Shown here piece by piece: positions 4,395 to 54,412 of a DNA stretch of 64,000 nt. The stretch's first letter is position 1. Every line of letters starts with the position of its first letter. This DNA is from an uncultured Bacteroidota bacterium (GTDB lineage Bacteria > CLD3 > SB21), in NCBI GenBank assembly GCA_964602985.1, contig CAZRTJ010000005.1, positions 73,198 to 137,197 of the forward strand. The letters are read 5' to 3'. A program made the translations under genes and the position numbers. The notes beneath the pieces were generated by a model. That model did no database searches. It was not told the DNA's origin and was given only the letters and a program-made list of their open reading frames with translations.

Positions 4395-5681
4395 ATGAAA
4401 AAAGTAGTTATCGTAGACGGAGTGCGAACACCTTACGTGAAAGCCGGCACGCTGTTTCAAAAACTGACGGCGATCGATCTCGGCAACCTGGCGATGAGAG
4501 AACTCCTCAGCCGCACGGAACAACGGAGTGACGTAGTCGACGAAATCATCGTCGGCAATATCGCCCAGCCGCCCGAAGCGACCAATATCGCGCGGATTGT
4601 GGCGTTGGAGGCGGGCATCCCGAAAGACGTTCCTGCTTTTACCGTGCAACGCAATTGCGCATCCGGTATGCAGGCGATCGTCGATGCGTATCTGCGCATT
4701 CAAGCCGGACTCGCCGATACCATCATTGCGGGCGGCGTGGAATCGATGAGCAACATTCCCCTGCTGTTTCAACAAGCCTTCACCGACAAGTTCGCGGAGG
4801 TGTACAAAGCCCGATCGTTTGGACAGAAATTGGGCGCCTTGAGTAAGATCAAACTGCGCGACCTCAAACCCGTCATTGGTCTCCAGGTCGGGCTGACCGA
4901 CGGATTTTGCGGTCTCAACATGGGTGAAACGGCAGAGGTGCTTGCCAAAGAATTCAGCGTCACGCGCGCAGAGCAGGATGAACTAGCGTTGATGAGCCAC
5001 CAGCGCGCCGCCACGGCCACGGACAACGGCATTCTCAAACAGGAAATCGTCCCCGTTCAGCTCGGTGCGGACTTCAAAACCCTTGTGGACGAGGACAACG
5101 GCATTCGAAAGAATCAGACCATGGAGGCCCTTGGAAAACTTCGTCCGGTCTTTGATCGACGATACGGCACAGTCACAGCCGGCAATTCGTCCCAGATCAC
5201 GGACGGCGCGGCGTTTGTACTGGTGATGTCTGAGGAAAAAGCAAAATCTCTCGGGCTTCAGCCGCTGGGCGTGATCCGCGGATTCGGTTTTGCCGGTCTC
5301 GATCCGGAGCGAATGGGGCTGGGTCCGGTTTTCAGTACGCCGATCGCGCTGAAGCAGGCCGGCCTGACGATGAAGGACATCCAGCGTATCGAGATGAATG
5401 AGGCGTTCGCCGCACAAGTGATCGCCAACGAACGGTGTTTCGCGTCCAAACAATTTGCAAACGAACAACTCGACCTGCCGGACGCCCTGGGCGAAATCGA
5501 TCGGGGCATCCTGAATGTCAATGGCGGCGCGATTGCGCTGGGACATCCGGTCGGATCGTCCGCAACGCGTCTCGTCATTACACTACTGAAGGAATTGAAA
5601 CGTCAGCAACTGCAGTTTGGTCTCGCGACGTTGTGCATCGGCGGTGGTCAGGGCGGCGCGATGGTTCTCGAACAAGCCTGA
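4395..5681 (+). CDS. 3-ketoacyl-CoA thiolase / acetyl-CoA acyltransferase
   Basis: Thiolase signatures NCASGMQAI and NVNGGAIALGHPVGSSATR, and C-terminal CIGGGQG. It begins 3 nt after the clpX-like stop. Confidence 0.9.
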   Translation: MKKVVIVDGVRTPYVKAGTLFQKLTAIDLGNLAMRELLSRTEQRSDVVDEIIVGNIAQPPEATNIARIVALEAGIPKDVPAFTVQRNCASGMQAIVDAYLRIQAGLADTIIAGGVESMSNIPLLFQQAFTDKFAEVYKARSFGQKLGALSKIKLRDLKPVIGLQVGLTDGFCGLNMGETAEVLAKEFSVTRAEQDELALMSHQRAATATDNGILKQEIVPVQLGADFKTLVDEDNGIRKNQTMEALGKLRPVFDRRYGTVTAGNSSQITDGAAFVLVMSEEKAKSLGLQPLGVIRGFGFAGLDPERMGLGPVFSTPIALKQAGLTMKDIQRIEMNEAFAAQVIANERCFASKQFANEQLDLPDALGEIDRGILNVNGGAIALGHPVGSSATRLVITLLKELKRQQLQFGLATLCIGGGQGGAMVLEQA

Positions 5682-48217: not shown

Positions 48218-48985
48218 ATGGCTCATAAGAAACAACCCAGTCGTGCCGCTGCTTGGACCATCCGTACACTTGTTGATGCCATGTGCAGAACGGACAAGTT
48301 TATCACTGCGCGAGTCGGCATGGCTGTCAACGTTGGTATTACGATTCGAAACTGGATCACTGGATTCTACATTTATGAGTACGAACAACGAGGAACCGAT
48401 CGCGCCAGATACGGAGAGCGCCTCCTTGACGTTCTCTCTGAAAAACTCTCCAGCGCAGGCATTCAGGGAACAGCTTCTCGGACATTGCGGTTGTGCCGAC
48501 AGTTCTACACTGCCTACCAACAAATTCAGCAGACGCTGACTGCCAAATCGGAATGGTTGGCTTCTTCCGATAGAATTTGGCAGACGCTGTCTGCCAAATC
48601 AGACAATACGTCGAACAAAACGATTGGGTGGACGGCATCCACCCAATTCAAAATACCCGAAGCGAAACTCCTTGAGCGACTTTCCTTTTCCCATTTTGCC
48701 GAGCTTATCGAAATTGACGATCCTCTCAAACGCTGCTTCTACGAAATCGAATGTACCCGCGACAACTGGTCGGTGCGTGAACTGAAACGCCAGATCGGAA
48801 CTCTCTACTACGAGCGCCCCGGATTGTCAAAGAACAAGAGGAAACTTGCGGAGCTCGTGCGAAAAGGAGACCGCCGAGCCGAAGCTCCGCTGCAACAACA
48901 AAACCTTTTGATTTCGACCGGGCCTCTGACTATCTTGTCCGGTCGCGCTAACGCGACCTGTCCGTTGAATTCTCACTTTCTTTGA
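48218..48985 (+). pseudogene. Truncated DUF1016 (YhcG-like PDDEXK nuclease) remnant; N-terminal region only, with an internal 21-bp duplication
   Basis: GFYIYEYEQRG, RTLRLCRQFY and WSVRELKRQ match the YhcG N-terminal half. The nuclease domain is missing. Local GC is clearly lower than the flanks. Confidence 0.5.
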
Positions 48986-49027: not shown

Positions 49028-49270
49028 ATGCCGGTCAAAAGTTATCTTCTTCAACCCGTCCGTGGAATGGACGATGAACTCAAATCAGCGCTAAGCCCCT
49101 TGGGCGGGTGCGAACTGATCGAGACCACCCGTCCAGACCTTTACGTTTTGCTCACCGACACTTCCTCCCGCGAAGAAGAAAAAAAACTGGAAACTGCGTT
49201 GGAGACGCTCCCGGGAGTCGCGTGTCTGAGCCTGGTGTCCGCCTACGATGACAGGGAGATTGAAATATGA
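49028..49270 (+). CDS. napD: NapD-like chaperone for periplasmic nitrate reductase
   Basis: 80-aa protein directly upstream of, and overlapping by 4 nt, napA. NapD-like pattern (hydrophobic core, acidic tail, conserved V..L.L). Confidence 0.65.
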   Translation: MPVKSYLLQPVRGMDDELKSALSPLGGCELIETTRPDLYVLLTDTSSREEEKKLETALETLPGVACLSLVSAYDDREIEI

Positions 49271-51570
49271 ATCGTCGGGAATTGATCAAAAAGATGGCCA
49301 CGCTGGCCGCCATGACCGCCGCCGCGTCCGTGATTCCGGGCGTCACCTTCGCCCGCAACGTGGACGAATGGACGGAAGATCCCATCGAGTGGAAGAAATC
49401 TCCGTGCCGATTTTGCGGCGTCGGATGCGGCATCCTCATCGGTCTGTCCAATGGCAAAGCCGTCGCCGTCAAAGGCGATCCCAACAGTCCGGTGAATAAA
49501 GGTCTCTGCTGTGTGAAGGGCTATCACTCCGTCATGGCGTTGTACGGCAAGGATCGCCTGACCAAACCCTACATCCGCAAGAACGGACGGCTCGTGCCGG
49601 CCACCATGAAGGAAGCGCTCGACCTGATCGCGGAAAAAATGAAGGAGACGATTTCCAAACACGGCAAGGATTCCGTCGCCGTCTACGGCAGTGGACAGTG
49701 GACGATCCCCGACGGCTATGTCGCGTCAAAGTTCTTCAAAGCCGGCATCGGAACCAACAACGTGGAAGGCAACGCGCGACTGTGCATGGCCAGCGCCGTC
49801 ACGGGCTTCCTCACATCCTTCGGACAGGACGAGCCGATGGGTTGCTATGACGACATCGATCACGCCGACGTATTTGTCCTCTGGGGCAATAACATGGCGG
49901 AAATGCATCCGGTGCTCTTCTCCCGACTGCTGGATCAACGCATGCGGCGCGGCGCCAAAATCATCGACTTTGCCACCCGGACGACCCGCACGAGTATGGC
50001 CGCCGACAAATCGATTCTCTTTCGCCCGCAAACCGATCTTGCCGTCGCGAACGCCATCGCATACGAATGCATCCATAACGGCTGGATCAACGAGCGGTTC
50101 ATCCGTCAGCACACGGTATTCAAGAAAGGCAAGACGAACATCGGATACGGCCTCGAAGATCATTCTAATTTTCAGGACGAACCCAAAGACGCGACGTTCG
50201 ACGAGTACAAGAAATTTCTCGAAGATTACACGCCCGAAAAAGTGGAAAAGATCTCCGGCGTTTCCGCCAACGACATTCGCTACATTGCCCAGATGTACGG
50301 CGACCCGAATAAGAAAATCATGAGCCTGTGGTGCATGGGAATGAACCAGCACACGCGCGGTACGTGGATCAATAACCTCGTGTACAATATTCATCTGCTT
50401 CTCGGAAAAATTTCCACTCCCGGCAACAGTCCCTTCTCTCTGACGGGACAGCCCAGCGCGTGCGGGACCGTGCGCGAAGTCGGCACGCTGACCAATCGCC
50501 TCCCCCACGGTTTTGTGACCAATGAGAAGGATCGCAAACTGGCTTCGGAAATATGGAACGTCCCCGTCGAGAAAATTCCCGACAAGCCGACGTATCACAC
50601 GATGGAGATGTTCCGGGCGCTCGACCGGGGCGACATTCGTTTCATTTGGATCCAGGTGACCAATCCCATGGTCACGTTGCCCAAGCTCACGCGGTATCGC
50701 GAGGGCGCGTTGAAGGAAGATCGGTTCGTGGTCGTCTCCGATGTGTATCCTACGCCGACGACGGATGTGGCCGACGTGATTCTGCCGTCCGCCATGTGGA
50801 TCGAACGCGAAGGCATGTTTGGCAACTCCGAACGGCGCACCCAGCACTTCGAGAAAATGCTCACGCCGCCGGGTGAGGCGATGAGCGACACTTGGCAGTT
50901 GATCGAGGTCGCCCGGCGAATGGGATATGAAAAACTCTTCCCGTGGAAGGAAGAAAACCACATTGAAGAAATTTGGAAAGAATACACACGTTTCCACCAC
51001 GGGCCGGATCATGAAATGGCGACCTATGAAAATCTCAAAGCCAATCCCGGAGTGATGTGGCCTTGTCCGGACGGCAAAGAAACCAAGTGGCGCTACCACG
51101 CCAAAACGGATCCCGCCGCCAAAGGCGACTCGTTCGACTTCTACGGCAAGCCCGATGGCAAAGCGTGGATATGGATCCGCCCGTACGAACCGGTGCCGGA
51201 AGCGCCCGACGACGAATACCCGTTCTGGCTCAATACGGGACGTGTGCTGGAACATTGGCATACGGGCTCTCTGACACGCCGCGTGTCGGTATTGCACAAA
51301 GCAGTCCCGTCATCGTACGTCGAACTGCATCCGGAGGATGCACGCGAACTCGGAATCAAGAACGGCGATCGGGTGCGTCTGATCTCGCGACGCGGAAAGA
51401 TCGTGATGTCCGCCTCCATCAATGAGCGCGGCGTGCCGCCACGCGGACAGGTCTTTGTACCATTCTTTGACGAAGGCTATCTGATCAATGAACTGACGCT
51501 GGACGCATTCTGCCCGATCTCGGGACAGCCGGATTACAAAAAATGCGCGGTGAGAGTCGAACGCGCATGA
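49267..51570 (+). CDS. napA: Periplasmic nitrate reductase catalytic subunit NapA (monomeric short type)
   Basis: Tat signal NRRELIKK; CRFCGVGCG [4Fe-4S] motif; NARLCMASAVTGF Mo-ligand cysteine region; 767 aa. Confidence 0.92.
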   Translation: MNRRELIKKMATLAAMTAAASVIPGVTFARNVDEWTEDPIEWKKSPCRFCGVGCGILIGLSNGKAVAVKGDPNSPVNKGLCCVKGYHSVMALYGKDRLTKPYIRKNGRLVPATMKEALDLIAEKMKETISKHGKDSVAVYGSGQWTIPDGYVASKFFKAGIGTNNVEGNARLCMASAVTGFLTSFGQDEPMGCYDDIDHADVFVLWGNNMAEMHPVLFSRLLDQRMRRGAKIIDFATRTTRTSMAADKSILFRPQTDLAVANAIAYECIHNGWINERFIRQHTVFKKGKTNIGYGLEDHSNFQDEPKDATFDEYKKFLEDYTPEKVEKISGVSANDIRYIAQMYGDPNKKIMSLWCMGMNQHTRGTWINNLVYNIHLLLGKISTPGNSPFSLTGQPSACGTVREVGTLTNRLPHGFVTNEKDRKLASEIWNVPVEKIPDKPTYHTMEMFRALDRGDIRFIWIQVTNPMVTLPKLTRYREGALKEDRFVVVSDVYPTPTTDVADVILPSAMWIEREGMFGNSERRTQHFEKMLTPPGEAMSDTWQLIEVARRMGYEKLFPWKEENHIEEIWKEYTRFHHGPDHEMATYENLKANPGVMWPCPDGKETKWRYHAKTDPAAKGDSFDFYGKPDGKAWIWIRPYEPVPEAPDDEYPFWLNTGRVLEHWHTGSLTRRVSVLHKAVPSSYVELHPEDARELGIKNGDRVRLISRRGKIVMSASINERGVPPRGQVFVPFFDEGYLINELTLDAFCPISGQPDYKKCAVRVERA

Positions 51571-52247
51571 AGGACGTACTCAAACATCGCAAGGTTTTCA
51601 TCTTTCTCGTCATCCTGCTGATGGCTTCGGTGATCTACGTGTTCGGCGAAAGTCTGTCCGGCGAAGACATCACGGCTGTCGGGTCCGAAACGAGATGGGT
51701 GTCGGGTCCCACGTTGCCGCGCGAAGCAGGGGTATTCCGACGCGCCGCCGATGCACTGATTTACCTCGGCCTGATTAACGAAAGCGGCAAGCGAACGATG
51801 CGGACGTACTACGAACGCCGCGCCTACGACGGCGCGCCGCCGATGATCCCGCATGTGGTGGACGACGAACGCGCCTTCGGCGGCAAAGTCTGCCTGACCT
51901 GTCATGAAAACGGCGGCTACGTGCCCAAATACCAGGAGTATGCTCCTGTCGTTCCGCATCCGGAATTGATCAACTGCCGCCAATGTCACGTTCCCGCCAA
52001 AACGAATTCGCTCTTCCGCGCGTCCGACTTCAAACCGGCCGGCGTTCCCGCACTCAAACAGCGCGCGTTGTCGACAAGTCCGCTCCTCATTCCGCATCAA
52101 CTTCACATGCGCGAAAATTGTCTCGCCTGTCATGCCGGACCGGGTGCGCCCCAGGAAATTCGCACCACGCATCCCGAGCGTTCGAATTGTCGGCAATGCC
52201 ACATGGTTCAGCAACCCATGGAAACTTTTTCGAGGCCGGTTCAATAA
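51567..52247 (+). CDS. napB: Membrane-anchored tetrahaem cytochrome made of two tandem NapB-like dihaem modules
   Basis: N-terminal TM helix, then two repeats of the NapB signature: APPMIPH...CLTCH...CRQCHVP and SPLLIPH...CLACH...CRQCHMV. ATGA overlap with the napA stop. Confidence 0.75.
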   Translation: MKDVLKHRKVFIFLVILLMASVIYVFGESLSGEDITAVGSETRWVSGPTLPREAGVFRRAADALIYLGLINESGKRTMRTYYERRAYDGAPPMIPHVVDDERAFGGKVCLTCHENGGYVPKYQEYAPVVPHPELINCRQCHVPAKTNSLFRASDFKPAGVPALKQRALSTSPLLIPHQLHMRENCLACHAGPGAPQEIRTTHPERSNCRQCHMVQQPMETFSRPVQ

Positions 52248-52248
52248 T

Positions 52249-52860
52249 ATGCCACGACCCGACCGTATCCGATGGCTATTCGCCGCGATGTTGTGCGTCT
52301 GGATCAGCGCGTGTTCCAAGCATGAAACGCATGGCCTGGCCGCGATGCTGGACGAGGCGCCGCCGCCCGATTCCGCAACCTCCGCCGCCCAGCCCTCCCT
52401 GGGAGAATGGCCCGCACTGACGGCAGTTCAGGCCGATCTGGAAACGTACGTGGTCTCGCGCACTCCGCGCCTAACGAAATATCCGTGTACGAACTGCCAC
52501 ACGAAGCCGCTGAAGGAGATGAAATCCGTGGAAGTCCGCAAAGCGCATTGGGACATTACTTTACAGCACGCCGCCGAAAACATCATGACCTGTCTCACCT
52601 GTCATACGGAAACGAACCTGGACACCCTGCACAACCTGACGAATCAAACGCTGTCGTTTAACACCAGCCACGAGGTGTGTGGGCAATGTCATTTCACGCA
52701 GCTGCGTGATTGGAAAGGCGGCGCGCATGGCAAACGCGCCGGCGGCTGGGTTCTACCGCGCGTGCTGACGTTGTGCGTGGAGTGCCACAACCCGCATCGT
52801 CCGGCCTTCGACAGCCGGTGGCCCGCCATCCGCAGTAATCTGATGGAGAGGCTCCGATGA
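52249..52860 (+). CDS. Tetrahaem c-type cytochrome lipoprotein (NapM/c3-like)
   Basis: Lipobox WISAC; CTNCH, CLTCH, CGQCH, CVECH. It begins 2 nt after the previous stop. Confidence 0.75.
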   Translation: MPRPDRIRWLFAAMLCVWISACSKHETHGLAAMLDEAPPPDSATSAAQPSLGEWPALTAVQADLETYVVSRTPRLTKYPCTNCHTKPLKEMKSVEVRKAHWDITLQHAAENIMTCLTCHTETNLDTLHNLTNQTLSFNTSHEVCGQCHFTQLRDWKGGAHGKRAGGWVLPRVLTLCVECHNPHRPAFDSRWPAIRSNLMERLR

Positions 52861-53960
52861 AACGCCCTGCGGACAATTCCGGACTGCAATCCATGCTTGC
52901 GGAAAATGCACTCGGCTGGTTTCTCCAGAGAGACGTCGAAGATCGCTATCTGCAGGATTCGTGGCAGCAGGTTCGATTTTGGAATCAGACGCACGATACG
53001 ACCCCCCGTGCTCCCGCCGTCACCGTCGCCGAACTGTCCATGCAGGAAGGCATGTCTCGTCGCGACGCGATGAAAGCGATGACGGGCACTCTGCTCGCGG
53101 GCATGGCGCTGTTTCAGACGGCGTGCAATCCGTTCGCCGATCCGCTCGAACGCGAAAAGGCCAGCCTCGCGTGGGACGAATATTTCCAAAAGAACTTTCG
53201 CAAAATGTCCGAAGGCGAAAGAGAAGAAACCGTCCGACGGCTGGAACGCCAATACGAATTGCAATCCGGTCAACGTGTGCGGATTTCCCGAAGAGAGGCC
53301 ATTCCGGGCGTCCTGTTCGGATATGCGTTTAACATCTCCAAGTGCCGCGGATATCTCGAGTGCATTCGCGGCTGTCTGAAAGAAAACAATCAGGACCGTA
53401 AATCCGGGATGCAGTACATCTCCATTCACGAACACAAAAGAGGTCAAATCAATTTTTCCAACGCACCCGACGACTGGTTCCACGAGGTTCCCTCCGAAGA
53501 TCACTTCTACATAGGCACGCAGTGTTTTCATTGTGAAAATCCGCCTTGTACGGATGTGTGCCCCGTCCAGGCCACGTGGAAAGAACGAGACGGCATTGTC
53601 GTCGTGGACTACAACTGGTGCATTGGATGTCGCTATTGCGAAGCGGCGTGTCCGTACGACGCCCGGCGATTCAACTGGGCCGACCCGGTCGTCCCAGACT
53701 CGGAACTCAACCGCGAGCAGCATTATCTCGGCAATCGCCTGCGCAAGAAAGGCGTGATGGAAAAATGCACATTCTGCATTCAGCGCACGCGCGCGGGCAA
53801 GAATCCGGCCTGCGTCGAAGCCTGTCCGACCGGCGCGAGGATTTTCGGCAATCTGCTCGACCCGGATTCCGAAATTCGATGGGTCCTGAAGAATAAAAAA
53901 GTCTTCCGTCTCAAAGAAGAACTGGGCACCGAGCCCAAGTTTTGGTACTTCATGGATTGA
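52857..53960 (+). CDS. Tat-exported four-cluster [4Fe-4S] ferredoxin subunit (NrfC/PsrB/DmsB family)
   Basis: SRRDAMKAMTGTLLAG Tat motif at residues ~66-80, and four Cys clusters including CxxCxxCxxxCP. ATGA-coupled to the upstream gene. The alternative start at 53040 gives a normal-length Tat peptide. Confidence 0.8.
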   Translation: MKRPADNSGLQSMLAENALGWFLQRDVEDRYLQDSWQQVRFWNQTHDTTPRAPAVTVAELSMQEGMSRRDAMKAMTGTLLAGMALFQTACNPFADPLEREKASLAWDEYFQKNFRKMSEGEREETVRRLERQYELQSGQRVRISRREAIPGVLFGYAFNISKCRGYLECIRGCLKENNQDRKSGMQYISIHEHKRGQINFSNAPDDWFHEVPSEDHFYIGTQCFHCENPPCTDVCPVQATWKERDGIVVVDYNWCIGCRYCEAACPYDARRFNWADPVVPDSELNREQHYLGNRLRKKGVMEKCTFCIQRTRAGKNPACVEACPTGARIFGNLLDPDSEIRWVLKNKKVFRLKEELGTEPKFWYFMD

Positions 53961-54056
53961 CATGTTGCGTTACAAAAACACATACAAGATTTCGTACAGT
54001 GATGAGAACGCAGTCAACCCCCGAAGTTTTCAGGTTTGATCTTAAAAAGCGTGGAA

Positions 54057-54070
54057 TTGATTTGAGTCAA
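54057..54070 (+). promoter_or_regulatory. FNR/CRP-family-like box TTGAT-N4-GTCAA in the intergenic gap inside the nap locus
   Basis: TTGATTTGAGTCAA matches TTGAT-N4-(A/G)TCAA in 9 of 10 positions, ~340 nt upstream of the NrfD-like gene. Confidence 0.25.
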
Positions 54071-54105
54071 TGACAGTTGGTCGAATGAAAGAGATTTCCT
54101 TTCTG

Positions 54106-54132
54106 TTCTTTCTTTTGACGCAAAAGAAAGAA
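54106..54132 (+). other. Perfect 12-bp AT-rich palindrome (TTCTTTCTTTTG-acg-CAAAAGAAAGAA)
   Basis: Seen directly. No U-tract follows, so it is not a canonical terminator. It sits in a 450-nt lower-GC gap. Confidence 0.4.
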
Positions 54133-54412
54133 CCAAAGAAAACAGCGGCTGTGGAAAAAACGCCGGAATCGGAGTTCGCTTATGGAGGCGGAAAACAAGT
54201 TCCTAATGTGGACGTGACGAGTTGCTTTCATACCTGTTCCACGTTTTCCGCATCATGGAGCGCGAACTCCGGTTCTGTTTCGGCGTTTTTTCCAAGGCCG
54301 CCAAGTAGGCTGCGTCCTGCGAGAAAGTTTGATAACAAATGGACGGCGGTTGCCGGGATGAGATCCAAGGCAGACATTCGAAACAGGAACAACGTAGGGA
54401 GAACGGAACTTC

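Follow-up and report, generated by a model that had tools for sequence, protein, structure and literature searches.

We analysed a window of 64,000 nucleotides from an uncultured Bacteroidota bacterium (GenBank assembly GCA_964602985.1, contig CAZRTJ010000005.1, positions 73,198 to 137,197 of the forward strand), in which the gene directly after napA encodes a tetrahaem cytochrome of 226 residues, hereafter double NapB. By its sequence, this protein is a member of the NapB family with a variant architecture: the dihaem module is duplicated, the loops are shortened and the polypeptide is probably anchored. The best explanation as a whole, which we hold to be fairly probable, is that double NapB arose through tandem duplication of a dihaem NapB module and acts as a tethered wire from an NrfD-type membrane module, encoded by the following genes, to the periplasmic nitrate reductase NapA. 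An earlier note, made from the DNA letters alone, had described a membrane-anchored NapB-NapB fusion that may stand in for NapC.

Full-length homologues (38, later 116) were aligned, and the alignments were cut into module 1 and module 2 sub-alignments. These were compared with each other and with a canonical NapB profile built from four proteins, namely E. coli NapB (b2203, NC_000913) and the PDB sequences 1jni, 1ogy_B and 3ml1_B. In hhalign, module 1 matched module 2 at 99.3% (E 1.1e-20), with 36% identity over 56 columns. The canonical profile matched both modules, module 1 with a probability of 97.5% (E 5e-12) and module 2 with one of 97.3% (E 2.1e-11), and both matches spanned the PPxIPH motif, the two haem sites and the residues past the second CXXCH. 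The same profile gave far weaker matches with the controls, E. coli NapC (65%, E 5.9e-5), the adjacent tetrahaem cytochrome (7.6%, E 4.6e-3) and Desulfovibrio NapM (9%), which ruled out that the NapB-likeness of the second half is an artefact of its haem motifs. With the Pfam NapB model (PF03892), the whole protein passed the gathering cut-off (32.7 versus 25.1 bits) and module 1 alone scored 28.3 bits, while module 2 alone stayed below the cut-off (16.2 bits, E 0.012). Among segments taken from homologues, the model matched 30 of 30 for module 1 (best E 8.2e-10) and 29 of 30 for module 2 at E <= 1 (best 2.6e-5). Because the NapB matches were strong in both halves and those of the controls weak, the view that the second half is just a generic CXXCH pair fails, and the tandem organisation claimed in the earlier note is borne out.

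Each half carries the NapB succession of a PPxIPH motif, a CXXCH, a further histidine and a second CXXCH with V-P/Q. In module 1, these elements are APPMIPH (residues 90-96), CLTCH (109-113), PVVPH (127-131) and CRQCHVP (137-143); in module 2, they are SPLLIPH (171-177), CLACH (185-189), RTTH (199-202) and CRQCHMV (208-214). The two signature copies that had been noted are both present, albeit with P-L in place of P-P in the second, and the noted spacing of 12-20 residues to the following CXXCH holds for the first copy (12) but not for the second (7). All four CXXCH motifs and H96, H131, H177 and H202 were invariant in the alignment of 116 homologues. The extra histidines of each module, which align with those of PPxIPH and (S/I)xTH in NapB, are presumably the distal haem ligands; double NapB would then hold four bis-histidine haems. 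Module 1 is the closer of the two to canonical NapB, including its flanks RAYPGAPPxIPH and CHVPxxTxxLF, so we speculate that it may be the module that docks on NapA.

The features are listed in Table 1. The ATG of double napB at 51567 shares the letters ATGA with the stop codon of napA, and its TAA (52245-52247) is separated by one nucleotide from the start of the downstream cytochrome gene, an arrangement that points to translational coupling. Starting at another in-frame ATG, at 51543, would lengthen the protein by eight residues, and some close homologues have been called from there; distant homologues begin at the equivalent of 51567. Within the linker, E53 was invariant and V56 and F57 were at least 90% conserved among the 116 homologues. 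In the AlphaFold2 model, residues 35-42 have a predicted local distance difference test score (pLDDT) below 50, and the first CXXCH, at residue 109, lies about 80 residues past the helix, beyond this low-confidence segment.

Table 1. Features of the double napB gene and of the operon around it, in window coordinates.
Feature	Position	Strand	Remarks
napD-like chaperone gene, 80 residues	49028..49270	+	Pfam NapD 22.2 bits, E 1.5e-4, under the 28-bit cut-off
napA, 767 residues, short form	49267..51570	+	NCBIfam NapA equivalogs; twin-arginine signal MNRRELIKK...
double napB gene, tetrahaem cytochrome, 226 residues	51567..52247	+	226-codon open reading frame
N-terminal hydrophobic helix, residues 10-27	51594..51647	+	basic N-terminal tail ahead: K2, K6, R8, K9
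linker, residues 32-75	51660..51791	+	variable residues 35-42, then conserved P-x-E-x-G-V-F-x-R motif, short helix
NapB-like module 1, residues 76-152	51792..52022	+	APPMIPH, CLTCH, PVVPH, CRQCHVP
NapB-like module 2, residues 158-218	52038..52220	+	SPLLIPH, CLACH, RTTH, CRQCHMV
tetrahaem c-type cytochrome, 203 residues	52249..52860	+	four CXXCH; lipoprotein-type signal (...WISAC)
periplasmic iron-sulfur (FeS) subunit, NrfC/PsrB/DsrO-like	52857..53960	+	Pfam Fer4_11 E 1.8e-23; twin-arginine motif SRRDAM
NrfD-family integral membrane subunit, 428 residues	54413..55699	+	Pfam NrfD E 6.2e-31

Like canonical NapB, double NapB is encoded directly after napA. However, canonical NapB is a single-domain, soluble periplasmic protein of about 15 kDa, whereas double NapB has two domains, and three modules are found in the relatives P0008-P0010, giving four or six haems per chain. 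Both modules also have a shorter loop than the four canonical NapBs, with 13-20 fewer residues separating the second histidine from the second CXXCH. At the N-terminus, the short cleaved signal of canonical NapB gives way to a long hydrophobic helix and a 45-residue linker. Furthermore, the partners differ: double NapB is accompanied by a short NapA and an NrfD-type module, not by NapC or NapGH.

The same fusion, which the earlier note suggested looking for in other genomes, belongs to a large family. A word-indexed protein search returned 1223 homologues at E <= 1e-3, the best 120 of which are 213-299 residues long and 47-60% identical to the query; 116 of these 120 have exactly four CXXCH. 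Of 1.84 billion cluster representatives (50% identity) searched with a profile, 1093 matched at E <= 1e-3, 740 at E <= 1e-10 and 179 at E <= 1e-30. Among the best 150 of the 1093 representatives, four CXXCH were present in 130 and two PPxIPH-like motifs in 123. The named carriers include Tenacibaculum, Cyclobacteriaceae, Reichenbachiella, Fulvivirgaceae, Flavobacteriaceae, Gemmatimonadota, Rokuibacteriota and Kapaibacterium, and the homologues go by the database names 'nitrate reductase cytochrome c-type subunit', 'Diheme cytochrome c NapB', 'cytochrome C' and 'multiheme c-type cytochrome'.

Several variants of the architecture were found. A rough regular-expression sort of the best 150 representatives placed 73 in a class with a long helix plus linker, 19 in a class with a lipobox-like motif and 38 in a class with a short signal-like N-terminus. 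In many distant members, of 158-200 residues, the two-module core is preceded by a normal signal peptide or by a lipobox. P0008-P0010 (299 residues, six CXXCH) contain their third module as an extra module-2-like copy between modules 1 and 2, and they lie inside the same six-gene operon (P0010 at 4451-5350 of locus L010). P0152 (313 residues) matches double NapB over residues 7-190 (47% identity) and the downstream cytochrome over residues 212-295 (38% identity, E 8e-23), so this protein would be a fusion of the two neighbouring genes, unless an assembly or gene-calling artefact has joined them. In P0275 (614 residues), the two-module core forms the C-terminal part of a far larger protein, with the same proviso of a possible artefact.

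The operon comprises, on one strand, napD, napA, double napB and the genes for the lipoprotein tetrahaem cytochrome, the FeS protein and the NrfD-like protein. This six-gene order is kept in seven other loci. These are a locus in the cultured Maribacter sp. 2307ULW6-5 (L005), one in a complete Cyclobacteriaceae genome (L007, CP075525), one in a 9-Mb genome (L008), one in a Gemmatimonadota metagenome-assembled genome (L009), the six-haem variant (L010), and two loci of the signal-peptide variant, beside nor, NnrS and Crp genes (L012 and L013). Scanning genome contigs with double NapB alone recovered one locus (Maribacter); the other loci came from contigs that encode homologues. In every locus examined, double napB stood directly after napA, with stop and start codons overlapping or nearly touching. 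The stop codon of the napD-like gene overlaps the napA start, and a small gene at the napD position is also present in L005 and L007-L010.

The three genes downstream of double napB (cytochrome c, FeS protein and NrfD-like protein) resemble the PsrBC, NrfBCD, DsrJOP, QrcBCD and ActABC modules, and together they likely form a complete candidate quinol dehydrogenase, as judged by their sequences. In the cytochrome, a cysteine follows the hydrophobic signal region in five of five loci compared. The FeS subunit scored 192.4 bits against the NCBIfam DsrO model (cut-off 200), followed by QrcC, ArrB, TtrB and NrfC, and its PDB matches were PsrB (2vpw_B, 5.5e-32), ArrB (6cz7_B) and ActB of alternative complex III; its twin-arginine motif was present in five of five loci. 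The NrfD-like protein scored 411.6 bits against the NCBIfam DsrP equivalog (NF045798, cut-off 350), and its closest solved chains were ActC of alternative complex III (6f0k_C, 1.2e-8, and 6lod_C). The context of the DsrP and DsrO matches is nap and not dsr, so a sulfate-reduction subunit would probably be named here by automatic annotation. The quinol-oxidising site of the module is probably in this NrfD-like subunit. Unlike the NrfD-type modules named above, the one found here is joined to NapA through double NapB.

Two features of the FeS subunit were seen besides. A long N-terminal extension precedes the twin-arginine motif in the window (52857-53100) and in L007-L010, with 'MLAENxL' common to the window and L009. 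A cysteine follows the hydrophobic region of the twin-arginine translocation (Tat) signal in five of five loci; the subunit may thus be a lipoprotein exported by Tat.

We propose the following electron route. Double NapB would be exported with its N-terminus inside and its C-terminus outside, remain tethered to the cytoplasmic membrane by a signal-anchor and the linker of about 45 residues, and serve as the subunit that delivers electrons in a periplasmic nitrate reductase with the short, 767-residue NapA. The NrfD/DsrP-like membrane subunit would oxidise quinol, and the Tat-exported FeS subunit would then carry the electrons to the lipoprotein tetrahaem cytochrome, the probable relay between the FeS subunit and double NapB. 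From there, they would run along the four haems of double NapB into the [4Fe-4S] cluster of NapA and on to its molybdenum cofactor, where nitrate would be reduced to nitrite. From sequence and gene context, we infer the membrane tethering, the order of the carriers, the docking module and the role of the NrfD-like subunit in quinol oxidation.

The NapA of the window matched the NCBIfam NapA equivalog models with 977 bits (cut-off 904) and 944.7 bits (cut-off 930.55). Among PDB chains, those of heterodimeric enzymes were its best matches (3ml1_A, 819 bits; 2nya_A, 810 bits; 1ogy_A, 762 bits), ahead of 2jio, the monomeric enzyme of D. desulfuricans (633 bits). It is a short form without the insertion of about 50 residues at chain positions 550-603; the short form has been described as probably ancestral and generally monomeric (2026 Nap review, PMC13223375). 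However, the protein retains the tyrosine of CVKGY (Tyr58 in 3ml1/1ogy chain numbering), which is a serine in D. desulfuricans NapA and is conserved in all heterodimeric Naps according to the same review (PMC13223375).

The N-terminal helix was judged by sequence heuristics on 120 close homologues. In these proteins, the uncharged N-terminal stretch spans 17-33 residues (median 24), and their best Kyte-Doolittle hydropathy averages over 19 residues have a median of 2.58. No signal-peptidase site satisfying the (-3,-1) rule was present in 41 of the 120, and the candidate sites in the others did not align with each other. Across phyla, I12, L18 and S29 are at least 90% conserved (116 homologues), which is unusual for a disposable signal peptide, and AlphaFold2 predicted a helix over residues 4-34 with pLDDT 90-95. 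Because of the long hydrophobic stretch, the conserved residues, the lack of a conserved cleavage site and the predicted helix, the heuristics favour an uncleaved signal-anchor, and the N-terminus is probably cytoplasmic.

Several points weigh against the explanation of double NapB as a tethered wire. In the window protein itself, VFG/E (G27), GES/L (S29) and SLS/G (S31) all satisfy the (-3,-1) rule, and since about 38 of the 150 best representatives belong to the short, signal-peptide-like class, tethering by a helix is not universal in the family. NapA has Pro and Gly in place of E47 and S772, two residues reported to be critical for tight NapAB dimers, so its complex with the partner may be weak. 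In addition, the FeS and NrfD-like genes are separated by a gap of 452 nucleotides (53961-54412), as opposed to 4-155 nucleotides in the relatives (L007-L010 and L012), which makes co-transcription of the NrfD-like gene less certain in the window; the gap contained no convincing gene and only weak terminator-like hairpins. We also found no experiment on any member of the family. As for the NapA residues, the E47 and S772 positions are occupied by Pro and Ala in E. coli NapA, whose complex is weak, and the residues seen here fit a weakly binding NapB-type partner. If such a partner were tethered, it would stay close to both NapA and the membrane module.

A different reading of the helix is that it is an ordinary cleaved Sec signal, and that the mature protein is a soluble tetrahaem cytochrome that shuttles in the periplasm between the membrane module and NapA. 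Canonical NapB is soluble, the candidate signal-peptidase sites of the window protein lie just past the hydrophobic stretch, and distant members such as P0223, P0233, P0269 and P0271 have classical signal peptides. This reading nevertheless seems unlikely, considering the length of the uncharged stretch, the conservation of residues within and just past it, and the missing or unaligned cleavage sites; furthermore, 19 of the 150 representatives carry a lipobox-like motif, which points to selection for attachment to the membrane. It is less probable again that the anchored double NapB is itself the quinol dehydrogenase that replaces NapC, with a haem near the membrane, and we consider this very improbable. 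With one N-terminal helix and four CXXCH, it has the parts list of NapC, NirT and NrfH, which provide the link to the quinol pool in nap clusters, and it showed weak matches to the NCBIfam NrfH model (TIGR03153, 23.7 bits) and to Pfam Cytochrom_NNT (NapC/NirT, 19.0 bits). Both scores are far under the respective cut-offs (134.2 and 24.1 bits), however, and hhalign to E. coli NapC gave 7-69%. The haem domain is also far from the helix, whereas the first CXXCH of E. coli NapC comes soon after its N-terminal hydrophobic segment. On these profile scores and the haem position, an identity as NapC or NrfH was rejected. Moreover, signal-peptide and lipoprotein versions exist, such as P0231 in the same operon, and because relatives with a plain signal peptide share the operon, the helix is unlikely to form a quinol site of the NapC/NrfH type. 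The suggestion in the earlier note that double NapB stands in for NapC therefore keeps only part of its force: tblastn with E. coli NapC, NapG, NapH and NapF gave nothing convincing in the 64 kb, but the job of NapC more likely falls to the complete NrfD/FeS/cytochrome module that is conserved directly downstream. Ranked last, and likewise very improbable, is the idea that double NapB is a general electron hub, merely encoded beside napA, that serves other reductases too. Multihaem cytochromes are often promiscuous, nor and NnrS genes lie beside the L012 cluster, and the window contains two further multihaem genes. Against this stand the strict position after napA with overlapping or near-touching codons and the NapB type of both modules, NapB being the known partner of NapA.

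NapM was also tried as an identity for double NapB. Like double NapB, it is a tetrahaem cytochrome encoded beside a short NapA in clusters without canonical napB; it has been proposed as an electron donor to NapA and is also named in Caldithrix abyssi (PMC5317091). The NapM used as a control (L014:4443-4889, 148 residues) came from the D. desulfuricans napCMADGH locus, which was recovered through the PDB NapA sequence. It lacks PPxIPH, and its gene lies upstream, not downstream, of napA. The candidate was rejected, with hhalign values of 19% for the full family, 20% for module 1 and 42% for module 2.

Nap is usually described through proteobacterial models, in which NapAB is combined with NapC or NapGH. 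The database labels already give these proteins as NapB. Searches of the open-access literature turned up no account of the architecture or the operon, whether as a tetrahaem, fused, double or membrane-bound NapB or as a nap operon with an NrfD-type module. The 2026 Nap review lists only napEDABC, napDAGHB, napCMADGH and napAGHBFLD as operon types (PMC13223375), and a review of the NrfD family does not mention Nap or nitrate reductase (PMC8076601). It is tempting, though at present a tentative and rather doubtful step, to see here a fifth, unlisted Nap class (napD, napA, double napB, cytochrome c, FeS, NrfD), widespread in Bacteroidota, Gemmatimonadota and related phyla, in which a short, 'monomeric-type' NapA would be wired via eight haems to a quinol dehydrogenase of the NrfD/DsrP type. 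Such a class would conserve energy if the module is electrogenic. An electrogenic function has been argued for other complexes of the NrfD family, and NapC-dependent Nap is thought not to conserve energy. In soils, sediments and the sea, the carrier phyla count among the major nitrate reducers. If the proposed route holds, the energy yield of Nap nitrate reduction in these bacteria may need to be re-evaluated, pipelines that record 'napAB present, napC absent' miss a complete, different chain from quinol to nitrate, and it is wrong to regard every short NapA as a 'monomeric' enzyme without a partner. For annotation, the name 'Diheme cytochrome c NapB' is given to four-haem proteins, and the NrfD-like neighbour passes the NCBI DsrP model outside any dsr context.

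The GC content is even over the window (0.525-0.563), and a search with Rfam gave no RNA genes in it. By its PurF homologues, the source falls among uncultured bacteria of the FCB group, the nearest being from 'Bacteroidetes bacterium' metagenome-assembled genomes (76% and 65% identity), followed by Calditrichaeota and KSB1 (60-63%). Upstream of napD, a porin-like gene of the Alginate_exp family (PF13372) is found in three of the related loci (L007 5006-6331, L008 5098-6381 and L012 2694-3983), and its product might be a nitrate or nitrite porin; this gene is absent from that position in the window. There, a DUF1016_N gene (48218-48985) precedes napD and was called with 221, 194 and 234 residues in near-identical contigs (L001-L003), and these length differences between samples suggest a variable or decaying gene. 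At the start of the window, two multihaem genes lie on the reverse strand. One (364-1725) encodes a lipoprotein-like multihaem cytochrome of 453 residues with a Gly-X-Y stretch, four CXXCH and apparent CX3CH and CX4CH motifs, and the other (1978-2712) encodes a cytochrome c554-like tetrahaem protein of 244 residues (PF13435, E 1.1e-17).

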